A stretch of DNA of 39,710 bases from a virus (lineage: Duplodnaviria > Heunggongvirae > Uroviricota > Caudoviricetes): positions 1 through 39,710 of IMG/VR virus record IMGVR_UViG_2778261152_000009; one strand, written 5' to 3'. The position numbers were made by a program, and so were the translations under genes. Shown here piece after piece: positions 1,884 to 39,710 of the stretch (position 1 is its first letter; each line of letters starts with the position of its first letter). Below the pieces are notes generated by a model. That model ran no database searches. It was not told the origin of the DNA and saw only the letters and a list, made by a program, of their open reading frames with translations.

Positions 1884-2789
1884 CTATATTTCCAGACACC
1901 TGTTATCACTTAACCCATTACTGGCTTGCTGCCGTAGATATTCCCGTGGCGAGCGATAACCCAGTGCACTATGCGGATGCCATTCGTTATAATGCTCGAA
2001 CGCCTCTGCAAGGTTCTTTGCTGCCGTTAACCCGTCTGGTTTGGGCATGACACTGATGTAGTCACGCTTTATCGTTTTCACGAAGCTCTCTGCTATGCCG
2101 TTACTCTCCGGACTCCGCACCGCCGTGCTCTTCGGTTCAAGCCCCAACATCCGGGCAAACTGCCGTGTTTCATTAGCCCGGTAGCATGAACCATTATCCG
2201 TCAGCCACTCTACTGGAGACGCCGGAAGCTCGTTGCCGAAGCGGCGTTCCACCGCTCCCAGCATGACGTCCTGTACTGTTTCACTGTTGAAGCCGCCCGT
2301 AGTGACCGCCCAGTGCAGTGCCTCACGGTCACAGCAGTCCAGCGCGAACGTGACTCGCAGTTTTTCTCCGTTATCACAGCGGAACTCGAACCCGTCAGAG
2401 CACCATCGCTGATTACTTTCTTTCACAGCCACTCTGCCTGTATGTGCCCGTTTCGATGGCGGTACAGCAGGTTTTCGCTCAAGCAACAGCGCATTCTGGC
2501 GCATGATCCGGTAAACACGTTTGGCATTGATCGCAGGCATACCATCAAGTTCTGCCTGTCTGCGAAGCAGCGCCCATACCCGACGATAACCATACGTGGG
2601 CAGCTCTCCGATAACATGGTGTATACGGAGAAGCACATCCGTATCATCAGTGTGACGACTGCGGCGGCCATCCATCCAGTCATCGGTTCGTCTGAGAATG
2701 ACGTGCAACTGCGCACGCGACACCCGGAGACAACGGCTGACTAAGCTTACTCCCCATCCCCGGGCAATAAGGGCGCGTGCGCTATCCAC
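1884..2789 (-). CDS. insD: IS2 transposase OrfB (InsD, DDE catalytic domain)
   Basis: 301-aa ORF recognised as IS2 InsD ([34 protein letters not shown]...); overlaps the upstream orfA in the -1 frame as in IS3-family frameshift-dependent transposases. Confidence 0.9.
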
Positions 2790-3112
2790 TTTTTTGCCCG
2801 TCCATATTCAACGGCTTCTTTGAGGAGTTCATTTTCCATCGTTTTCTTGCCGAGCAGGCGCTGGAGTTCTTTAATCTGCTTCATGGCGGCAGCAAGTTCA
2901 GAGGCAGGAACAACCTGTTCTCCGGCGGCGACAGCAGTAAGACTTCCTTCCTGGTATTGCTTACGCCAGAGAAATAACTGGCTGGCTGCTACACCATGTT
3001 GCCGGGCAACGAGGGAGACCGTCATCCCCGGTTCAAAGCTCTGCTGAACAATTGCGATCTTTTCCTGTGTGGTACGCCGTCTGCGTTTCTCCGGCCCTAA
3101 GACATCAATCAT
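2747..3112 (-). CDS. insC: IS2 transposase OrfA (InsC, HTH DNA-binding)
   Basis: ORF track gives 2747..3157; the recognised InsC begins at the internal Met [40 protein letters not shown] (121 aa, start 3112). Confidence 0.85.
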
Positions 3113-3203
3113 CTGTTCTCCAATGACTAGTCTAAAAACTAGTATTAAGACTATCACTTAAATAAGTGATATTGGTTGTCTGGAGATTCAGGGGGCCAGT
3201 CTA

Positions 3204-10262: not shown

Positions 10263-10652
10263 TTAGTCAGCGAAGGTTAAGACGAGAATTACCTTAATGA
10301 TGTCTGCTACAACAGACACGGCCATAGATAAACCAAAGACGATCCAAGCCACAGTGATGTCTTCACTACCATCGTATAGAGTTCCGTAATCACTGGTGTA
10401 AGGCGTAAATGTCGCGCCTTGATACAATAGGTATAAGCTTGATCCATAGAGGATAAATGCAGATATCCCTTGTATTGCTATGATCACAAGAATCATGAAA
10501 CGAGCTGATCTATGCGCCCAAGCCTGGCTTATTTTTTCTGATAGAGATTTCGCAATAAAAGCATGCGCTAAGCCGTAAATTGTCGAGATTGCCAACATCC
10601 CAAAAAAGCTTGCTATAGCGGTTCCAACCATAATCGCCCCTTGCGTGATCAA
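10263..10652 (-). CDS. Small integral membrane protein coupled to cI (rex-position gene)
   Basis: 129-aa ORF with about three hydrophobic helices; ORF-track start is a TTG overlapping the cI stop by 4 nt, alternative ATG at 10631 with AAGGGG upstream; lies between cI and OL where lambda carries rexAB. Confidence 0.6.
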   Translation of the reverse strand: MITQGAIMVGTAIASFFGMLAISTIYGLAHAFIAKSLSEKISQAWAHRSARFMILVIIAIQGISAFILYGSSLYLLYQGATFTPYTSDYGTLYDGSEDITVAWIVFGLSMAVSVVADIIKVILVLTFAD

Positions 10653-11365
10653 ACCAGCCTTAGTTTTGTCTCAATTGCAACGCCTATAATCTTGCAGTTT
10701 CCATTGATTGGCACGAGAGGCCATGCAGGATTAAGTCCCTTGAGGTATTTATTTCCGCCGTCGATTATCAGCTTCTTGAATGTTGCTTCGTTAGAGTCAG
10801 AAAGTTTTGCTATGACCAAGCTGCCGTTGATCGCCTCTCTTCCGGTATCGAAAAGAACGAATGTTCCCTCTGGAATGCTTAACCCAACCGGTGCCGTCAT
10901 TGAATCACCTTCCACTTTAAGCCAAAACGCATTACCTTGAATATGCGCGTCAGACTCAAGCCAAACATCTATGTCTTTAATGGTGTATGGTTCGCATGCT
11001 TCACACCACGAGCCAGCCTGGATACTGCTTAACACCGGATACCTCTTTCCTGCTCTGTATTCCCCTGCATACCTTACGTTGGCATCGCTCTTAAGGCTTT
11101 CTGCCTGTTCTGCAACCTTGGCAGCAATTGACTGGCTAAAATCAGCAATTGAGACTTGCAACAATCGTGCAAAACCAGATGCAACCTCAACGTTTAGCGC
11201 GTTTCTGCCATTAAGATAATGCCCTACCGCTCCTTGGGTGATACCCAGTTCATCAGCGATTGAGTATTGGGTTATTCCCAATTCTTTCTTTTTTGACTCA
11301 TACAAAGCCTTAAGCCGCTTAGCGTCTTCGAGCTGTTCTGTCGTCAGTGATTTTTTATTTTCCAT
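10649..11365 (-). CDS. cI: CI-type prophage repressor (HTH + S24 LexA-like autopeptidase domain)
   Basis: 238 aa; N-terminus LTTEQLEDAKRLKALYESKKKELGITQYSIADELGITQGAVGHYLNG parallels lambda CI; C-terminal FWLKVEGDSMTAPVG...FKKLI carries the S24 Ser/Lys region; divergent from cro across an operator region; no obvious SD upstream (possibly leaderless as for lambda PRM). Confidence 0.9.
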   Translation of the reverse strand: MENKKSLTTEQLEDAKRLKALYESKKKELGITQYSIADELGITQGAVGHYLNGRNALNVEVASGFARLLQVSIADFSQSIAAKVAEQAESLKSDANVRYAGEYRAGKRYPVLSSIQAGSWCEACEPYTIKDIDVWLESDAHIQGNAFWLKVEGDSMTAPVGLSIPEGTFVLFDTGREAINGSLVIAKLSDSNEATFKKLIIDGGNKYLKGLNPAWPLVPINGNCKIIGVAIETKLRLV

Positions 11366-32210: not shown

Positions 32211-33506
32211 ATGGCTACTTGGCAAGGATCAAATGGCGGACTGTTGGCTGGTATCGGTGGCGTCAACTCAAACGCCCCTAGCGTAAATGACATCGGAAAT
32301 ACGCTTCAGCTTATCAGGCAGAACAATGATATTGAGCGCTCAGGCGCTAACAATGTTGGACTGACGGCCTTGCAAGGTCTTTCAGGTATTGCTGGTGTTT
32401 TTCAGCAGGAAAAGCAGGCTCAGCGGCAGAAAGAATTTCAGCAGGCATACGCTAATGCTTATGCGTCTGGTGATCGCGGTGCTTTGCGTCAGTTAGCTAC
32501 TCAATATCCAGACCAGATTGAATCCGTTCGTAAAGGCATGGGATTCATTGATGAAGATCAGCGTAATTCTATCGGCACATTAGCGGCTGGCGCTCGCCTT
32601 GCGTCATCATCTCCAGAAGCGATGCAATCATGGCTGCAAAACAACGCCAAGGAACTGACTCGCGTCGGTGTTGACCCTAACAGCGTTGCTCAGATGTATC
32701 AGCAGAACCCTTCAGGATTTGGTGAGTTTGTTGATCACCTTGGAATGGCTGCTCTTGGTCCGATTGATTACTTCAATGTTCAGGACAAGATGGCAGGTCG
32801 TGAGATTGACCGAGGCAGGCTGGCAGAGACAATCCGCAGCAATCAGGCTGGAGAGGCGCTAACAGCGCGTGGTCAGGACATCCAGATACGTGGACAGAAC
32901 ATCAGCGCACAGAATGCTGCTCTTTCCCGCGAAATACAAAGAGCAGAATTACAAGAAAAGGCTCTGGACAGACAAATAGCCAGAGAAAGCAATCAGTTAA
33001 AGCTTGAAGAGCTAAAACAGAAACAGGCAGATGTTCGGCAAAAGGCTGACATAGCCCGCGCTGACAGGCAGGCCGCCGCTCAGGGTGCAGTTGATACATT
33101 CAGCACCGCGCTTGATTCTCTCAACGAGATAGAGCAAAGCCCCGGCCTTTCAAAAGCAGTAGGAATTCGCTCAGCGTTTCCGACAGTTCCTGGCTCTGAT
33201 GCGGCTAACTTTGAAGCAAGGCTCGACACCTTTAAAGCTCAAACATTCCTTCCTATGGTGCAGTCCCTTAAGGGTATGGGGGCTCTTTCAGATGCTGAGG
33301 GTAAAAAATTATCCGATGCGGTTGGTGCCCTAAGCCCCAAAATGAGTGAAAAGGCTTTTCGTGACTCTATCGGAAAGATTAGAAATCAGCTTGAAAGCAA
33401 GTTGAGCACTGTTAAAAAACAGTTTGATTATCAGGAGCCGGTGCAGAATATGCCAGGGCAACAATCTACTACTGGCAGTAACTTTTCTTCACTATGGGGT
33501 GATTAA
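32211..33506 (+). CDS. Ejection protein, P22 gp20-like
   Basis: 431-aa ORF in the gp20 position; low-complexity Gln/Ala-rich helical sequence. Confidence 0.6.
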   Translation: MATWQGSNGGLLAGIGGVNSNAPSVNDIGNTLQLIRQNNDIERSGANNVGLTALQGLSGIAGVFQQEKQAQRQKEFQQAYANAYASGDRGALRQLATQYPDQIESVRKGMGFIDEDQRNSIGTLAAGARLASSSPEAMQSWLQNNAKELTRVGVDPNSVAQMYQQNPSGFGEFVDHLGMAALGPIDYFNVQDKMAGREIDRGRLAETIRSNQAGEALTARGQDIQIRGQNISAQNAALSREIQRAELQEKALDRQIARESNQLKLEELKQKQADVRQKADIARADRQAAAQGAVDTFSTALDSLNEIEQSPGLSKAVGIRSAFPTVPGSDAANFEARLDTFKAQTFLPMVQSLKGMGALSDAEGKKLSDAVGALSPKMSEKAFRDSIGKIRNQLESKLSTVKKQFDYQEPVQNMPGQQSTTGSNFSSLWGD

Positions 33507-35503
33507 TGGCTAAAGCATGGAAAGATGTTATCGCCTCTCCACAGTATCAGGCGTTAGCACCAGAACAAAAAGCGCAGGCTCAGGAGCAATACTTCAATGA
33601 AGTCGTGGCCCCGCAAGCCGGAGAAAATGCAGAGCAGGCTAAGCAAGCTTTCTATGCTGCCTATCCATTGCCATCTGTGCAGACAGTGGAGACACAACAA
33701 CCAGTATCACAGCAACAACCACAGCAAAGTGGATTTATGTCTGATCTTGGCGAAGCAGTAAAAGAGACTGGTCGCGGACTGGTGCAGGCTGGCGTGAACG
33801 TGGCAAACATACCTGCATCAGTTGCCGATGCTGTAACAAGCGCGGCGGCTTGGGCTGGCGGTAAACTCGGTATTGGCGATGGGACATATCAACCAGCACC
33901 ACGAGTAACAACGCAGGGATTAGAGCAGGACTTTGGCCTTCAGCAAGGTGTGCTGACTCCACAAACGACAGAGGGAAGGGTATTTGCTGAAGCATTGCCT
34001 TACCTCACTCCTGCTGGCGTTGAGAGAGCGGCGGCACAGGCACCAACACTTGCTGGTCGAATTGCTCAGGGGGCAACTCGACTTCTCGCAGAAAACGCAG
34101 TTGGATCACTTGCTGCAAACAGTATGAAAGATGATGCGGAAGCACTCGCTACCGATTTAGGTGTTGGCGTTCTGGCAGGCGGCGCTATTAACGCTGCTGG
34201 ACGTGGATTAGGTGCTGCTTATCGTGGCGTTCGCGGTGCTATTGCGCCAGAAGCGCAGCAAGCTATCAGATTTGCAGAGCGTGAAGGAGTTCCTCTGCAC
34301 ACCACAGACCTGTTACAACCCACTTCCCGCGTCGGAAAAATGGCGCAGACTACAGCAGAAAATATCCCTCTGGCTGGCACAAGCGGAATGAGAGCAACGC
34401 AACAGGAAGCGAGAAGCCAGTTGGTGCAGAGATTTGCCGATAAATTCGGTGAGTATGATCCAGCGGTTGTTATTGACAGCCTTAAAGCGAAAACATCAGG
34501 AATTCGTCGTGCCGCCGGTAATCGACTGGAGCAGGTTCAGAATGCTATGGCTGGAGTAAACATTCAGCCTGCGCGAGCAATGCAGCAGATTGATACAGAA
34601 ATATCTAACCTGCAGAAGCTTGGTAAGGTTGCTGATAACGAGACTATTTCAAAACTTCAGTCCTATCGTGATGAGCTTGTTCGCAATGCTGGTCCTGATG
34701 GTCCGGTAAATCTGGATTTGAAGCAATTAAGCGATCTGCGCAGCCAGTTCAGAATGGACGTGAAGGGGGAACGACCAGTGCTACCAAACCGTTCCGATGC
34801 TGCCATTCAGCGCGTTTACAAGGCGATGACAGACGATATCAATGGTGCCATTGGTCAGAATCTTGGCAACGATACTCTCCGTAAATATCAGCAGGCCAAT
34901 GCCGTATACGCTGACGAAGCGGCGAAACTAAAGAATACCAGGCTGAAGAATGTTCTCATGAAAGGCGACCTGACGCCGGAAGTTGTCAACAACATGCTAT
35001 TCAGCAAGAACAAATCGGAAATTAAGACGCTGTATAACTCAGTTGGTCGTGTTGGCAGGGCGCAAATGCGCAATGGCATCATTGGAAAGGCGATGGAGAA
35101 ATCTGGCGGATCCCCTGACCAGTTCCTTCGGCAGCTTAACATCCTGCAAAACCAGACTGGCATCACATTTAAGGGGCAGGACGCTGCTTATCTGAAAGGA
35201 TTGAAAAACTACTTGCAATCCACGCAGCAGGCTGCAAAAGCGGCAGTAACAACACCAACAGGGCAGCAAACCATCCCGTTCATTATTGGATATGGGACGG
35301 CAATGAACCCGGCGACAACTGGCGCAGCGGTAAGCTACGGACTTCTTACTCGCGCCTATGAGAGCGAACCATTCAGAAATGCAATGCTCCGAATGGCAAA
35401 CACCCCGCGCGGATCAACAGCGTTTGAGAAAGCCATGCAGCAGGCGCAAAAGGCCATTAACGCCCTGACTCAAGGTGCCAAGTCTGATGCGTTGTCAGAA
35501 TAG
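33506..35503 (+). CDS. Ejection protein, P22 gp16-like
   Basis: 665-aa ORF in the gp16 position, last of three consecutive ejection-protein genes. Confidence 0.6.
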   Translation: MAKAWKDVIASPQYQALAPEQKAQAQEQYFNEVVAPQAGENAEQAKQAFYAAYPLPSVQTVETQQPVSQQQPQQSGFMSDLGEAVKETGRGLVQAGVNVANIPASVADAVTSAAAWAGGKLGIGDGTYQPAPRVTTQGLEQDFGLQQGVLTPQTTEGRVFAEALPYLTPAGVERAAAQAPTLAGRIAQGATRLLAENAVGSLAANSMKDDAEALATDLGVGVLAGGAINAAGRGLGAAYRGVRGAIAPEAQQAIRFAEREGVPLHTTDLLQPTSRVGKMAQTTAENIPLAGTSGMRATQQEARSQLVQRFADKFGEYDPAVVIDSLKAKTSGIRRAAGNRLEQVQNAMAGVNIQPARAMQQIDTEISNLQKLGKVADNETISKLQSYRDELVRNAGPDGPVNLDLKQLSDLRSQFRMDVKGERPVLPNRSDAAIQRVYKAMTDDINGAIGQNLGNDTLRKYQQANAVYADEAAKLKNTRLKNVLMKGDLTPEVVNNMLFSKNKSEIKTLYNSVGRVGRAQMRNGIIGKAMEKSGGSPDQFLRQLNILQNQTGITFKGQDAAYLKGLKNYLQSTQQAAKAAVTTPTGQQTIPFIIGYGTAMNPATTGAAVSYGLLTRAYESEPFRNAMLRMANTPRGSTAFEKAMQQAQKAINALTQGAKSDALSE

Positions 35504-35592
35504 CTTCGCAAACACCAGGAACGTGCAAAAACCAAATATGTAGAACGCAATATTCAGCATATCTCTTTGCATAAATCCTCCGTAACTGATAG

Positions 35593-35853
35593 TTAGCTGC
35601 TGTCTTTTTTATATAGCTCTTTGAGCGTATCAAAGACAATTTTCTTAACCATATCGGATTGTTGTTCTGCCATACGCTCTGCATCGTCAATGTAAACTGA
35701 TGCAGAGTTTTGTTTATCCAGTGATTCTTCAATCGCTGCAATTATCTCTGAGTTCAGAGACCTGTTATTCATCTTCGCACGCTGTTTAATTTTCGCGTGG
35801 AGTTCATGCGGAAGTCTCAAGTGAAACTGCGCCTCGTCGTATTTGCTGTACAT
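35593..35853 (-). CDS. mnt: Mnt-like ribbon-helix-helix repressor
   Basis: ORF 35593..35886; internal Met at 35853 gives 86 aa; FHLRLPHELHAKIKQRAKMNNRSLNSEIIAAIEESL and DDAERMAEQQSDMVKKIVFDTLKELYKK parallel P22 Mnt (FNFRMPMEVREKLKFRAEANGRSMNSELLQIVQDAL...NDAERLADEQSELVKKMVFDTLKDLYKK). Confidence 0.75.
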   Translation of the reverse strand: MYSKYDEAQFHLRLPHELHAKIKQRAKMNNRSLNSEIIAAIEESLDKQNSASVYIDDAERMAEQQSDMVKKIVFDTLKELYKKDSS

Positions 35854-35974
35854 CCTTGATGCCTCACCAGGTGGGTGGAATGGCATCGTAACTTACTGGA
35901 TAAATACTCAATAGTACCATTTCGGTATGCAATCACATCATGGTTGCATCATATCATTCGTCTGGAGCAATGAA

Positions 35975-38155
35975 ATGTCAGATATCACCGCAAATATTGT
36001 GGTAAGCATGCCTTCGCAACTCTTCACTATGGCTCGTTCTTTTAAAGCCGTAGCCAATGGCAAAATTTATATCGGTAAAATTGACACTGACCCGGTAAAT
36101 CCTGAAAACCAGATTCAGGTTTATGTGGAGAACGAAGACGGTTCTCACATTCCTGTTGCACAGCCAATCATCATTAACGTTGCCGGATATCCTGTATATA
36201 ACGGACAGATTGCCAAATTCGTTACCGTGCAAGGTCATTCGATGGCTGTTTATGATGCATATGGCACGCAGCAGTTCTATTTCCCTAATGTGCTGAAGTA
36301 TGACCCTGACCAGTTAAGACAGAATCTGCTTGATCGTCCTCTTACTATCAGGAATGGTAAGCTTGCGCTAGCTGATTTCATTAATGTCCGTGATTATGGG
36401 ATTATGGGTGACGGCACTGACGAGAGTTCCTTATGGGCAGCAATGATTGCTGCGCTTCCTTCCGGTTGCACAACACTATATGTTCCTGCTGGTAATTATG
36501 TATGCAATACTCCTATCGCCCTGGTGTGGGCAAAACTACCCACGTTAATTGTTGACTCTGAGGCAATATTAACACCAGCCATATCCTTTTCTGCATTTTT
36601 AAACGTTCAGTACCGCCGAAGAGACGAAACTAAATTCGGTGCGGGAATTGTTTCTGCGGGAACAACTGCGAATATGGGTGGCTTTAAAGTTGGTGGAGGC
36701 GCTCTTATGGATTCTGGTGATGGAATGTTCTTATCATCAGATGGGCACGCTAACTGGATGCGCATTCAAACTAGCAAAAATTATAACCCATCAGAAGTTG
36801 CTATTTATGGCTCTGCGGCACAAGGTCAACTTGTACATCAGTCACAGAACGTACTGATACGTGAAAGTGGCTCGCTTTTCGACATTACTAATTGGGCAGT
36901 AGGTGATGCAATTTATGCTTTTGACAGGGCCCTGGTAATTACTGCATTAACCTCAGCAGACCAGATTTCTGTTACAGAAATTGGAGGGGGAAACCTTACT
37001 GCTGCCATAGGTGCTCATTCTAGATACCATTACGTATATACCACAGGTGGGGGTATATGCGACGTGGTAAATGGGGTATGTACAAGAAAATCAGGAGATC
37101 CATTCTTTTTCTTCGGATATGGAAATGGTACGTATAAATTCTGGCTTAACGGAACACTTCGTACCGTCGTCAGTATATCTAATAAAGGCAATACGTGCAC
37201 TTTGCAGGATACCTCTATAAATGCCACAAACGCGCAATACAAAATGAGGGATGATATTAACTCACAAATAAGTACATTGCGTGTGCAGAAAACTACAGGC
37301 GTGGATGAGGAGAATTTAACTATCTCTGCTAAAGCAGTTGGTGAATACGAAATAAGGGCAGGAATTTCCGGGGATGGTAAATATTATCCTATCCGTTTTT
37401 ATAACGGTGACGATGGTGCCTATAAACCGCATAAAGTAATGGAGATTACACCAAGCGGCCTTGTTGGGATTATGAATGATGGGTCATCTCCATCTGCACT
37501 TTTATATGCTAGTAATAAAACCAATGCACCAATGTCAGATGGCACAATGTTTAAGCTAGGTTCTTTCAGGACGCAATACACAGACGGTGCTAGAGAGCTA
37601 CAGTTTGGATGTTTGAGCAACTCTGGCTCTAACGGCGGCTTTATTCAGGGGAGTGATGCATCCGGCAATAACTACCAAGTAGTTATTAATCCTCGCGGTG
37701 GTAACGTTGGTGTTAATACAGATAATCCAGTATTTCCCCTAGACATTAATGGCGCTTGCGGGCCTCACATAAGCAACACATATACCAACGGTGACTCAAC
37801 TCGTTTATGGAAACTTGTGTATTCCGCAGGTGGGGTTTTAACAACATCTGATGAACGCAAGAAAACCAAGCTTAAGAAATTTACAGAGAATGAAATCGCT
37901 GCTGCACAAGAGCTTGCACTATGCTCTGGTACATTCATGTGGCTTAAAGATTGTGAGGAAATGGGCGATGACTCACCTATTAATATCGGGTACATAGTTC
38001 AAGATGTAATAAAAGTAATGGAAAAACATGGGCTTAATTACAGAAAATACAAAATGATAGACCATGATGAAGTGAATGATGCATACGCACTTAATTATGA
38101 CCAGATAATCGTTTTTGTTATGGCTGGTATTGTTGCTAGATTAGCATCAGGCTAA
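35975..38155 (+). CDS. Tailspike: P22-like head-binding N-terminus, distinct receptor-binding body, C-terminal chaperone-like domain
   Basis: ORF 35927..38155; Met at 35975 gives [58 protein letters not shown]... paralleling the P22 tailspike N-terminus; body unrelated to P22 as recalled; C-terminus has [11 protein letters not shown] resembling the S-D-x-R-x-K autoproteolysis motif of intramolecular chaperone domains. Confidence 0.8.
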
Positions 38156-38193: not shown

Positions 38194-38227
38194 GGCAAGA
38201 GGTAGAAACCACCTCTTGCCATTTATT
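38194..38227. terminator. Bidirectional terminator between convergent tailspike and membrane-protein genes
   Basis: Perfect 10-bp stem GGCAAGAGGT / ACCTCTTGCC with 7-nt loop, followed by ATTTATT on the plus strand and preceded by an A/T-rich run on the minus strand. Confidence 0.6.
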
Positions 38228-39710
38228 AATCTCCTAGCTTAATGAAATAAATTCCATTCATAACTGTTATTGAGTCCGCGTCAGGCCATGACGGAATGAG
38301 TTTTAATTTTTCTTTTTCGTCGTTACTTGCAATGTGTAAATTTAAAGAAAACCCACTTATCATTGCTGCATATTTTGTAATTCTACGAGGATCTCCTCCT
38401 GAAAAACTAAACATTGACTCACCAAAGGTGTCAGAATTATTTTTTTTCCAAGGGTTGTATGTGGGATACGCACCGATGAAACTTACGACATCCGTTGACG
38501 GATTAAAGTTACCATACTTACTTTGTAGTTGGGACAATATCCTGTTAGTTATGTTGGAATCTATCTCTCTTGCCATTGCATCAGAGTAAAAGAGCATATT
38601 TACTGTTGATGCACTATAGTAAACTACAATTGTGCAAATTAGGGCTGACAGTGTGCTTTTTACTTTGCTGCATGTTTTTAATTTTTCTATAGCGAAAGCA
38701 AATAGAAAAGCGAATGTTGCAGATAACCCAAGCAAAACTCTGGGTCCCTGTATGCCCCCGAGTCCGATAACCACAAAGAAGGGGCTGATTGCTAATGTTA
38801 ATATTGATATTAATTTTATAATATTTTTATCATGATTGATTACCTGACTATAGGAAAGAAAAACAACGGGAACCACCATGAACGGAATAATGCTAGCCCC
38901 AAAATAATAATCACCTGTGAGTGTTGATATCACAACCTCACTCACCCTTTGAAGCGTTTCGTATACAGGTTCTTTTAGCCAGTGAAAGGTGTCTTTAAGA
39001 TATGTGGGTGTGGTTACGTTGAATATAGCATGACTTAAAAAAACTATTATATAATAAATGGATGTAGCAAGTATTATTGCAAACGAAAATATTGAAAAAC
39101 ATTTAATGATTCTCTTTTTGCATTCTTCATTACATTTTGCAATGAATTGCATTAAAAATACAACGACAGGGAAAGAGATTAGTGATTGATATATTCCTAG
39201 TGAAAAGGTAAGCACTAAAACCCCAATAAATAGAAGTTTTATATTTACTTTGTCTTTTCCAAAGATTGAAGAATAAAGTATCAGACCTGATATACATGCG
39301 AGAAGTTGACCTAATGCAACGGTATCGGACTGCTGAGCAAACTCAGCTTGATAAGCAAATTGCGGAAATGATACAAAAATAATAGCAAACATTATCCTTG
39401 TACTAAGGAGCTTAAACGTGTTTACAGCTAATAAGAAAGCAGTTATAACATTAAGCGCTAACATTACGAGAGTTGTAAACCCCGGCGTGTAGGCGTTTAC
39501 CCTAAATATATAGTCGATTATTGCTGAACCCCACCGCCCTAGAGAAATCCACCATAAAATACCTTCATTAGGCCATGAAAAAAAAGCGTACTCTGTGTCT
39601 ATTGATATAGAAAAGTTGGTTAGGTTTTGAAAATAAACGAGTAAAGACGTTATAAATGCTATAACCATTATCTTAATGCTATTGGCGTTTATTTCTTTTT
39701 TTAAATTCAT
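38226..39710 (-). CDS. Polytopic membrane protein, candidate O-antigen-modifying GtrC-like (serotype conversion)
   Basis: 494 aa with many hydrophobic helices over ~380 residues then a hydrophilic C-terminal domain; markedly AT-rich compared with the rest of the window; convergent with the tailspike at the prophage edge; start codon is at the last bases of the window, so any upstream partners are not visible. Confidence 0.45.
   Translation of the reverse strand: MNLKKEINANSIKIMVIAFITSLLVYFQNLTNFSISIDTEYAFFSWPNEGILWWISLGRWGSAIIDYIFRVNAYTPGFTTLVMLALNVITAFLLAVNTFKLLSTRIMFAIIFVSFPQFAYQAEFAQQSDTVALGQLLACISGLILYSSIFGKDKVNIKLLFIGVLVLTFSLGIYQSLISFPVVVFLMQFIAKCNEECKKRIIKCFSIFSFAIILATSIYYIIVFLSHAIFNVTTPTYLKDTFHWLKEPVYETLQRVSEVVISTLTGDYYFGASIIPFMVVPVVFLSYSQVINHDKNIIKLISILTLAISPFFVVIGLGGIQGPRVLLGLSATFAFLFAFAIEKLKTCSKVKSTLSALICTIVVYYSASTVNMLFYSDAMAREIDSNITNRILSQLQSKYGNFNPSTDVVSFIGAYPTYNPWKKNNSDTFGESMFSFSGGDPRRITKYAAMISGFSLNLHIASNDEKEKLKLIPSWPDADSITVMNGIYFIKLGD

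Follow-up and report, generated by a model that had tools for sequence, protein, structure and literature searches.

Why should a prophage keep a gene for the repressor Mnt when it carries no antirepressor gene for Mnt to silence? Mnt of phage P22 is a textbook ribbon-helix-helix (RHH) repressor, and its only job known to us is the silencing of the P22 antirepressor, Ant. Many P22-like prophages keep mnt without ant, and in the published genome papers the status of such genes as relics is left undecided. The question is raised here by a 39,710-nt stretch of viral DNA (IMG/VR record IMGVR_UViG_2778261152_000009; Caudoviricetes), referred to below as the window, in which a leftward mnt gene stands alone between gene 16 and the tailspike gene. 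A preliminary description made from the letters of this DNA regarded the repressor either as a relic or as the direct regulator of a promoter in front of the tailspike gene. The reading favoured here, with a probability of roughly 0.6, is that the locus represents the smallest form of the so-called ant moron, a cassette of about 380 bp that would comprise a functional mnt gene, its promoter Pmnt and one predicted operator, the arc and ant genes and the promoter Pant having been lost. Such a unit would be self-contained, with Mnt binding beside its own promoter. The mnt-only type of ant moron is already known, and the window gene is essentially identical to unstudied genes of phages Sf101 and IME10; new are the prediction of the operator and promoter at the level of single bases, a series of co-varying protein-operator pairs, the result on selection and a conserved hairpin. 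The positions of all features are collected in Table 1.

The product of the gene (MYSKYDEAQFHLRLPHELHAKIKQRAKMNNRSLNSEIIAAIEESLDKQNSASVYIDDAERMAEQQSDMVKKIVFDTLKELYKKDSS) has an N-terminal Arc/MetJ-type RHH domain (Pfam Arc, PF03869, 2.3e-14, residues 7-48) followed by a C-terminal Mnt tetramerisation domain (Repressor_Mnt, PF11423, 3.4e-14, residues 57-82). It also matches the solved structure of the Mnt N-terminal domain, 1MNT (1.3e-18), and that of the tetramerisation domain, 1QEY (1.6e-8, residues 56-84), and is 47.5% identical to P22 Mnt over residues 6-85 (tblastn). The likeness to Mnt in both segments, proposed in the preliminary description, is thereby borne out, and by these domain matches the gene is a member of the Mnt family, for which comparison with related loci also provides a predicted operator. 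Its recognition strand reads Q9-F-H11-L-R13, and its tetramerisation helix is P22-like. Arc has the same RHH fold and a recognition strand, Q-F-N-L-R, that resembles the Q-F-x-L-R of the orphan proteins; unlike the window protein, however, it has 53 aa and no Mnt tetramerisation helix, and the promoter hexamers of the window do not enclose an Arc-type operator. The matches to the Pfam families HicB and FitA are weak and limited to the RHH part. Two other identities were considered and rejected: an RHH antitoxin of a type II toxin-antitoxin system, there being no adjacent toxin gene and no open reading frame (ORF) that fits the 90 bp between the stop codons of mnt and gene 16, and a partition protein, there being no ATPase domain in the 86-aa protein and no parA neighbour. 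The label 'partition protein ATPase', which is attached to Mnt homologues in RefSeq records NC_027398 (Sf101), NC_014900, NC_011802, NC_004348 and others, traces to phrog_795 and is a naming error, since these homologues are RHH proteins of 82-97 aa.

The annotation of Sf101 gives its copy as an ORF of 97 aa, whereas that of IME10 leaves mnt unannotated. The start giving 86 aa is preferred because the GAGG Shine-Dalgarno sequence lies 8 nt before the ATG at 35853, because a codon within the 97-aa extension (35869-35871) is hypervariable and its changes are always non-synonymous, and because in the class of phage L an upstream ATG, as read by eye, is followed by an in-frame stop. The GAGG is kept in the leaders of the window, JEP4, VSe13, L, Gally and Buttiauxella, and in Serratia the same place has CAGG. 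The two domains of Mnt are shuffled among phages: the window combines the Q-F-H-L-R type of N-terminal domain with a P22-like C-terminal domain, JEP4 combines the window-type N-terminal domain with a different C-terminal one, and locus L301 has the N-terminal domain of P22 and the C-terminal domain of JEP4.

The absence of arc and ant beside mnt was also confirmed. When P22 Arc and Ant were compared with the whole window by tblastn no match was obtained, Pfam scans of 30 early-region ORFs revealed no Ant, KilA-N, Bro-N or Rha domain, and no RHH ORF is present in the 121-bp gap (35854-35974) that separates the ATG of mnt from that of the tailspike gene. An Rfam search over 35300-36200 at E<=1 detected neither sar RNA nor any other family, and the window has no arc-ant junction that could encode sar. 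The orphan status of the gene, placed in the slot that immI occupies in P22, therefore stands, and the overlooked arc-ant pair that would have undone it was found neither by tblastn over the window nor by the Pfam scans. Since arc, ant, sar and a P22-like Pant were each looked for without success, the locus is not an immI region. With P22 immI it shares both Mnt domains, the position between gene 16 and the tailspike gene, the leftward orientation, the distance from the operator to the Pmnt -35 hexamer and an identical CTCAATAG junction; it differs in lacking arc, ant, sar, sieA and orf59a and in the eroded state of Pant.

That the unit behaves as a cassette follows from phage Sf6, in which both flanking genes are present and the ~380 bp that correspond to 35576-35957 are absent together with mnt. 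The region between gene 16 and the tailspike gene is known as the hypervariable 'ant moron', with mnt as its only immI gene in ST64T, ST104 and Para1 (PMC2629481), and phage L likewise has mnt without arc or ant (PMC8022706). By its gene content the window locus, a variable non-structural insert with mnt and without arc or ant, belongs to this mnt-only type, an arrangement that is common and has already been described in those papers. A literature search on Sf101 and mnt returned only unrelated papers on MNT and Mnt. The 471-bp locus (35504-35974) is present at 96-97% identity in phages IME10 and Sf101 and matches 411 of 5,426 complete E. coli genomes (~7.6%), the match extending over 80% or more of the locus in 159 of them. 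Among IMG/VR loci encoding a protein at least 94% identical to that of the window, the divergent neighbour is the tailspike gene and arc and ant are missing in 80 out of 80; the same number of L/Gally-type loci (80/80) also have an orphan mnt beside the tailspike gene and no arc or ant. Where the gap between mnt and the tailspike gene is larger in relatives, it holds HNH homing-endonuclease genes or an AT-rich insert instead of arc or ant.

Several named phages carry a comparable arrangement. Sf101 (gp14) and IME10 have the same cassette at the same position, with protein identities of 96.5-97.7%. The Salmonella phages ST64T, ST104 and L and the E. coli phage Gally share the orphan mnt divergent from the tailspike gene with a retained Pmnt and palindromic operator, but have Q-F-N-L-R paired with GACCAC-N-GTGGTC and usually one extra gene (orf62 in L; Gally has two), while in the window mnt is alone. 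JEP4 and VSe13 resemble the window in the N-terminal DNA-binding domain, operator, promoter, hairpin and tailspike neighbour and differ from it in the C-terminal oligomerisation domain; unlike the window, JEP4-type phages can also have Rha, KilA or, in locus L126, Ant genes on the other side of mnt, converging on it.

A palindrome was found in the gap, where the preliminary description had seen no clear operator. The annotated Omnt of P22 reads AGGTCCAC-C-GTGGACCT; on the mnt strand it continues with A-TTGAGA, the latter being the -35 hexamer of Pmnt, and on the opposite strand the preceding bases are TATATT-CTCAATAG, with the -10 hexamer of Pant among them. The window reads TAAATA-CTCAATAG-TACCATTTCGGTA on the plus strand and ATACCGAAATGGTAC-TA-TTGAGT on the mnt strand, and the junctions compare as TATATTCTCAATAG-GTCCAC in P22 and TAAATACTCAATAG-TACCAT in the window. 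Given this shared flanking layout, TACC-N5-GGTA sits exactly at the position of Omnt. Its extended form on the mnt strand, ATACC-N5-GGTAC, is a palindrome of 13-15 bp lying 3 bp upstream of the Pmnt -35 hexamer, with its centre at about -43 from the predicted Pmnt start, as in P22, and in every orphan class a distance of 48 bp separates the operator from the tailspike ATG downstream of it. The operator arms are unchanged in 50 of the 53 unique sequences gathered by protein or DNA similarity, the spacer and flanks being variable, and (A/G)TACC-N5-GGTAC is retained in Serratia, Buttiauxella and another Escherichia species. Within the window TACC-N5-GGTA occurs once and the relaxed form YACC-N5-GGTR twice, both times inside the 121-bp gap, with about one copy expected per window; as the motif was defined after the sites had been seen, these counts are only supportive.

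The predicted operator co-varies with the recognition residues of Mnt over four classes. In the P22 class the recognition strand H-F-N-F-R goes with GTCCAC-N-GTGGAC, in the L/Gally class Q-F-N-L-R goes with AGACCAC-N-GTGGTCT (core GACCAC-N-GTGGTC), in the class of the window, JEP4 and VSe13 Q-F-H-L-R goes with ATACC-N5-GGTAY irrespective of the different C-terminal domain of the latter two, and in the class of locus L311 Q-I-N-I-R goes with GGTATAAC-G-GTTATACC. The palindrome abuts ATTG(A/T)G in all four classes; when aligned in register, those of the P22, L/Gally and window classes share C-C at -4/-3 and G-G at +3/+4. According to Knight and Sauer, the base-contacting residues of P22 Mnt are reportedly Arg2, His6, Asn8 and Arg10; in an alignment with 1MNT these positions are taken in the window protein by Tyr5 (with Lys4 beside it), Gln9, His11 and Arg13, replacements that fit a changed specificity. 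Compared with P22, the window has Q-H-R in place of H-N-R and Tyr/Lys in place of Arg2, as well as ATACC-N5-GGTAC in place of the P22 Omnt. The pairs of recognition strand and operator form a natural series usable for the study of RHH specificity.

Both strands around mnt were scored with a simple sigma-70 weight matrix, which recovered the P22 controls (Pant 16.3, Pmnt 12.8); as background, the best score per 181 nt of the window has a median of 5.8 and a 90th percentile of 8.6. The putative Pmnt of the window, TTGAGT-15-TACGAT, scores 7.8 and would start transcription ~7 nt after its -10 hexamer, near 35878. The counterparts of its -35 hexamer in other loci are TTGTTG, TTGTGG and TTGAGG, and those of its -10 hexamer are TATGAT (L), TAAGAT (Gally) and TATCAT (P22). 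The spacer of 15 bp is found in the window allele, and one of 17 bp in the alternative allele, JEP4, VSe13, Serratia and Buttiauxella. The scores of the homologues are similar or higher: 7.7 in JEP4 (TTGTTG-17-TACGAT), 8.6 in L (TTGTGG-17-TATGAT) and 10.2 in Gally (TTGAGG-17-TAAGAT). By position and hexamers, predicted Pmnt homologues are conserved across the classes.

The gene itself is maintained. Of 59 distinct nucleotide alleles 57 are intact, the polymorphic sites are distributed over the three codon positions as 13/12/39, and the mean pairwise pN/pS is 0.148. Comparison of the DNA-binding domain with those of JEP4 and VSe13 gives a pS of 0.65-0.70 and a pN of 0.064-0.074, and versus JEP4 (pS 0.70, pN 0.064) the synonymous divergence is near saturation. 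The mnt gene is under long-lasting purifying selection, which leaves the view of the repressor as a relic unsupported; the promoter and operator, too, are conserved as far as Serratia and Buttiauxella. A disrupted copy is found in Citrobacter, which has a stop in the mnt frame after four codons and a mutation in one arm of the operator.

On the favoured reading, Mnt would be made from Pmnt in the lysogen, and the Mnt tetramer would bind the single predicted operator at about -43 of Pmnt, resulting in autoregulation that may be positive or negative. Bound Mnt would also occupy the DNA where rightward transcription to the tailspike gene used to start. Expression of the tailspike gene would most likely depend, as it does in P22, on late-operon transcription that continues through the antisense mnt. 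Many relatives appear to have mnt as the first gene of a leftward unit that would be expressed in the prophage and that includes a lipoprotein gene, of which the window keeps the regulator alone. In three E. coli loci (L008, L009 and L011, including O26) mnt is followed on the same strand by a gene for a 161-aa lipoprotein (MKKSLLIIPFLLVGC..., phrog_6067), and in a Buttiauxella locus (L377) by a gene for a different lipoprotein of 127 aa; the frequent presence of a lipoprotein gene after mnt in the same orientation points to a cargo gene driven by Pmnt and expressed from the prophage.

Several points weigh against this account. The promoter, its start site, the occupancy of the operator and the sign of autoregulation are all deduced from homology and conservation. 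The 15-bp spacer gives Pmnt of the window a score below the 90th percentile of the background, and three of the 53 unique sequences have ATACA in one operator arm though their mnt is intact. In vitro, P22 Mnt at Omnt reportedly does not directly repress Pmnt, and if so, plain negative autoregulation from -43 may not happen. Furthermore, the only visible target lies beside the repressor's own promoter and has no obvious selective value, so that a target is probably missing from the account. The locus reveals no new kind of system, but 'relic or regulator?' has become a testable question.

Among the alternatives, a tentative place may be given to an orphan module of Mnt and operator with a function of its own, unrelated to any antirepressor: it might gate or insulate transcription of the tailspike gene together with the hairpin described below, or act on a target in trans, its private specificity having co-evolved over a long time. 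If true, such a function would explain why whole P22-like classes (Q-F-H-L-R with TACC and Q-F-N-L-R with GACCAC) keep mnt beside the tailspike gene without ant. It is considered possible, though clearly not the likelier explanation.

A variant with two operators, at 35865-35877 and 35915-35927 and 50 bp apart, would place the promoter-distal one in the mnt leader and allow negative autoregulation or looping. Both sequences fit YACC-N5-GGTR and are the sole two such sites in the window, and in the first of them, CACC-N5-GGTG, the arms do not vary, in contrast to the hypervariable first three bases of the spacer. These operator-like arms, however, are the inner arms of a predicted hairpin, situated between the Pmnt -10 hexamer and the mnt Shine-Dalgarno sequence and overlapping the latter, which belongs to no Rfam family and is found in every class examined except P22. 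Its inner stems differ between classes (TCACC/GGTGG in the window, TCACTT/AAGTGG in L, TCGCTT/GAGTGG in Gally and GTCC/GGAC in Buttiauxella), so that the position in question is a hairpin also in L and Gally, whose Mnt recognises a different operator, while Buttiauxella, with the same Mnt class and Omnt as the window, has GTCC-N6-GGAC there. In locus L147 and in Citrobacter the spacer, or loop, is of 4 nt, and at the hairpin of Serratia nothing fits the operator pattern; L147 and Serratia keep Omnt intact. Moreover, the bases that match are for the most part (TCCAC, GTGAGG) ancestral and common to the L class. A second operator thus appears unlikely, and as a required one the site in the mnt leader was rejected on account of the other stems and the spacer variants.

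The comparison instead identifies 35858-35887 as a conserved predicted hairpin rather than a required operator. In an alignment of 18 distinct sequences 95.9% of the cells are paired, with one C-G to U-A exchange between classes; several other changes are wobble ones, and individual substitutions point to either strand. Folding gave -14.9 kcal/mol (z -2.3) for the RNA of the plus strand and -7.8 kcal/mol (z ~0) for that of the minus (mnt) strand. A second inverted repeat just downstream of the operator, in the tailspike leader, forms in the minimum-free-energy fold of 35920-35975 with a z of only -0.95, and at this place the other leader allele carries an inverted repeat of its own, CCGTAGC/GCTGCGG. 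A terminator-like hairpin after mnt (~35526-35571, minus strand, followed by a U run) was discarded, its z of -0.8 being no better than that of shuffled sequences.

Direct control of a promoter before the tailspike gene, the other option of the preliminary description, would mean that Mnt gates a weak rightward remnant of Pant reading into that gene, keeping tailspike synthesis off in the lysogen and tuning the amount of tailspike after induction or infection. An influence of Mnt and Arc on tailspike transcription was suggested by Villafane et al. (PMC2629481), and the constant distance of the operator from the tailspike ATG in every orphan class is in keeping with it. The candidate, ATGGCA-17-AATACT, matches 8 of 12 hexamer positions and, with the geometry seen in P22, would start transcription at the operator's edge. 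Its score, however, equals the background median; in the alternative allele it is destroyed (spacer 19, -10 hexamer AATCAA), as it is in the L and Gally classes (scores 2.9-6.0). Candidates directed towards the tailspike gene score 5.1-6.0, and a consensus promoter scan of the gap revealed no rightward promoter. The vestige is probably inactive, and control of the tailspike gene through it is accordingly an improbable option. A Pant homologue that is at background level and unconserved indicates that the strong Mnt-controlled promoter of P22 is gone here, whereas Pmnt and Omnt appear to be kept.

It is also conceivable, though rather doubtful, that the orphan Mnt acts in trans and represses the ant promoter of P22-like phages that enter or share the cell and have the same operator, thus shielding the main repressor of its prophage against antirepressor from outside. 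P22 Mnt, as is known, represses the ant gene of superinfecting P22, which provides a precedent; mnt is under selection without an ant of its own, and antirepressor relatives are common, 456 IMG/VR stretches encoding a relative of P22 Ant. Among the best 80 of these 456 loci, however, none has a TACC-type or L-type operator upstream of arc or ant, 46 of the 80 being of the P22 type, and among the matches listed, 44 loci with the operator pattern encode Mnt and the operator adjoins the tailspike gene or a homing-endonuclease insertion in every case, and never arc or ant. The orphan classes have diverged in specificity from the class linked to ant. A cognate ant-bearing phage was found neither by the DNA pattern scan nor among these 80 Ant loci nor by a scan of genome contigs; the one TACC-N5-GGTA near an ant gene, in L311, was dismissed as a cognate operator because it lies inside an arc-like coding sequence. 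Antirepressor loci may have RHH genes of their own: CUS-3 (L093) and L126 each have a tandem pair of RHH ('mnt') genes, of different classes, divergent from the antirepressor gene, the pair in L126 being separate and situated just upstream of the ant genes, and L126 has a third, JEP4-type mnt beside its tailspike gene.

Finally, a decaying immI remnant without present function, a possibility raised for L mnt by the authors of the phage L genome (PMC8022706) and in line with the loss of arc, ant and Pant and with some disrupted copies (two of 59 alleles and that of Citrobacter), is very improbable in view of the pN/pS of 0.15, the pS of 0.70 against a pN of 0.06 in the DNA-binding domain and the retention of promoter, Shine-Dalgarno sequence and operator across genera.

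Table 1. Features of the mnt locus and its two neighbours, in window coordinates.
Feature	Position	Strand	Basis or remark
Gene for gp16-type DNA injection protein	33506-35503	+	Left neighbour of mnt; last late-operon gene before the cassette; near-identical genes in Sf6 and PGAP annotations
mnt cassette (extent as indel versus phage Sf6)	35576-35957		Megablast pieces, Sf6 annotation, pairwise alignment
mnt, 86-aa Mnt-family repressor	35593-35853	-	Pfam Arc and Repressor_Mnt; matches to 1MNT and 1QEY
Conserved hairpin-forming inverted repeat (predicted)	35858-35887		Outer arms GATGCC/GGCATC, inner arms TCACC/GGTGG, loop 35869-35873
mnt Shine-Dalgarno GAGG	35862-35865	-	Read from sequence
Pant vestige ATGGCA-17-AATACT (probably inactive)	35880-35908	+	Score 5.8, equal to background median, versus 16.3 for P22 Pant
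Pmnt -10 TACGAT (putative)	35885-35890	-	Invariant in 53 unique sequences
Pmnt -35 TTGAGT (putative)	35906-35911	-	Positional homologue of annotated P22 Pmnt -35 TTGAGA, directly after the operator
Predicted Mnt operator TACC-ATTTC-GGTA	35915-35927		P22 Omnt position; class co-variation; conservation
Second inverted repeat ATGCAATCA/TGGTTGCAT	35927-35949	+	Tailspike leader, just downstream of the operator
Tailspike Shine-Dalgarno GGAG	35964-35967	+	
Tailspike gene	35975-38155	+	Right neighbour; P22 head-binding domain PF09008, 7e-67 (Pfam); 73% identical to P22 gp9 N-terminus

The window represents an almost complete E. coli prophage of the P22-like (Lederbergvirus-type) kind, with the integrase gene at its left end. 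Its early genes are lambda-like and encode a CI-type S24 repressor (10649-11365), Cro, CII, O and a DnaB-type helicase; they are followed by nin genes, lysis genes and P22-type morphogenesis genes. An IS3-family element composed of an HTH_Tnp_1 ORF and an rve integrase ORF is present within the left arm, near the integrase end (1884-3157). Of positions 1-24000 of the window, at most 64% is covered by any one complete E. coli genome. The tailspike is built of the P22 head-binding domain, a pectate-lyase-like region and, at the C-terminus, an intramolecular chaperone domain of the Peptidase_S74 type, and at the right end a GtrII-type glucosyltransferase gene (38226-39710) on the opposite strand is convergent with it. 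E. coli ES9 matches the 471-bp locus at 100%; there (L092, NZ_CM184323.1, 3612385-3621520) the prophage is a remnant that keeps the C-terminus of gene 16, mnt, the tailspike gene, gtr genes, a few early genes and the integrase gene, the head, lysis and replication genes having been deleted.

The start of the tailspike gene is a site of repeated insertion in related loci. HNH homing-endonuclease genes of 164-179 aa are located on the opposite strand right after tailspike codon 5 (ATGTCAGATATCACC|), at a point corresponding to window position ~35989, in L015, L017 and L038, in L016, L027, L040, L054, L073 and L088, in L062 and in L378; their C-terminal part is AP2-like by eye. The insertion duplicates the tailspike start, and no fewer than three distinct endonuclease genes have gone in at this point. 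In JEP4 (L005, 2082-2497) and L025 an AT-rich insert of ~280 bp separates a vestigial tailspike start (ATGACAGATATTATAAATAG) from the real one. It contains a strong sigma-70-like sequence, TTGATC-17-TAAAAT, facing the tailspike gene with a score of 13.7, and an in-frame extension of 31 codons (MNRRLFFKTIASLSAVIPFSS...) with a twin-arginine-like motif, which the annotation of JEP4 counts as part of the tailspike.

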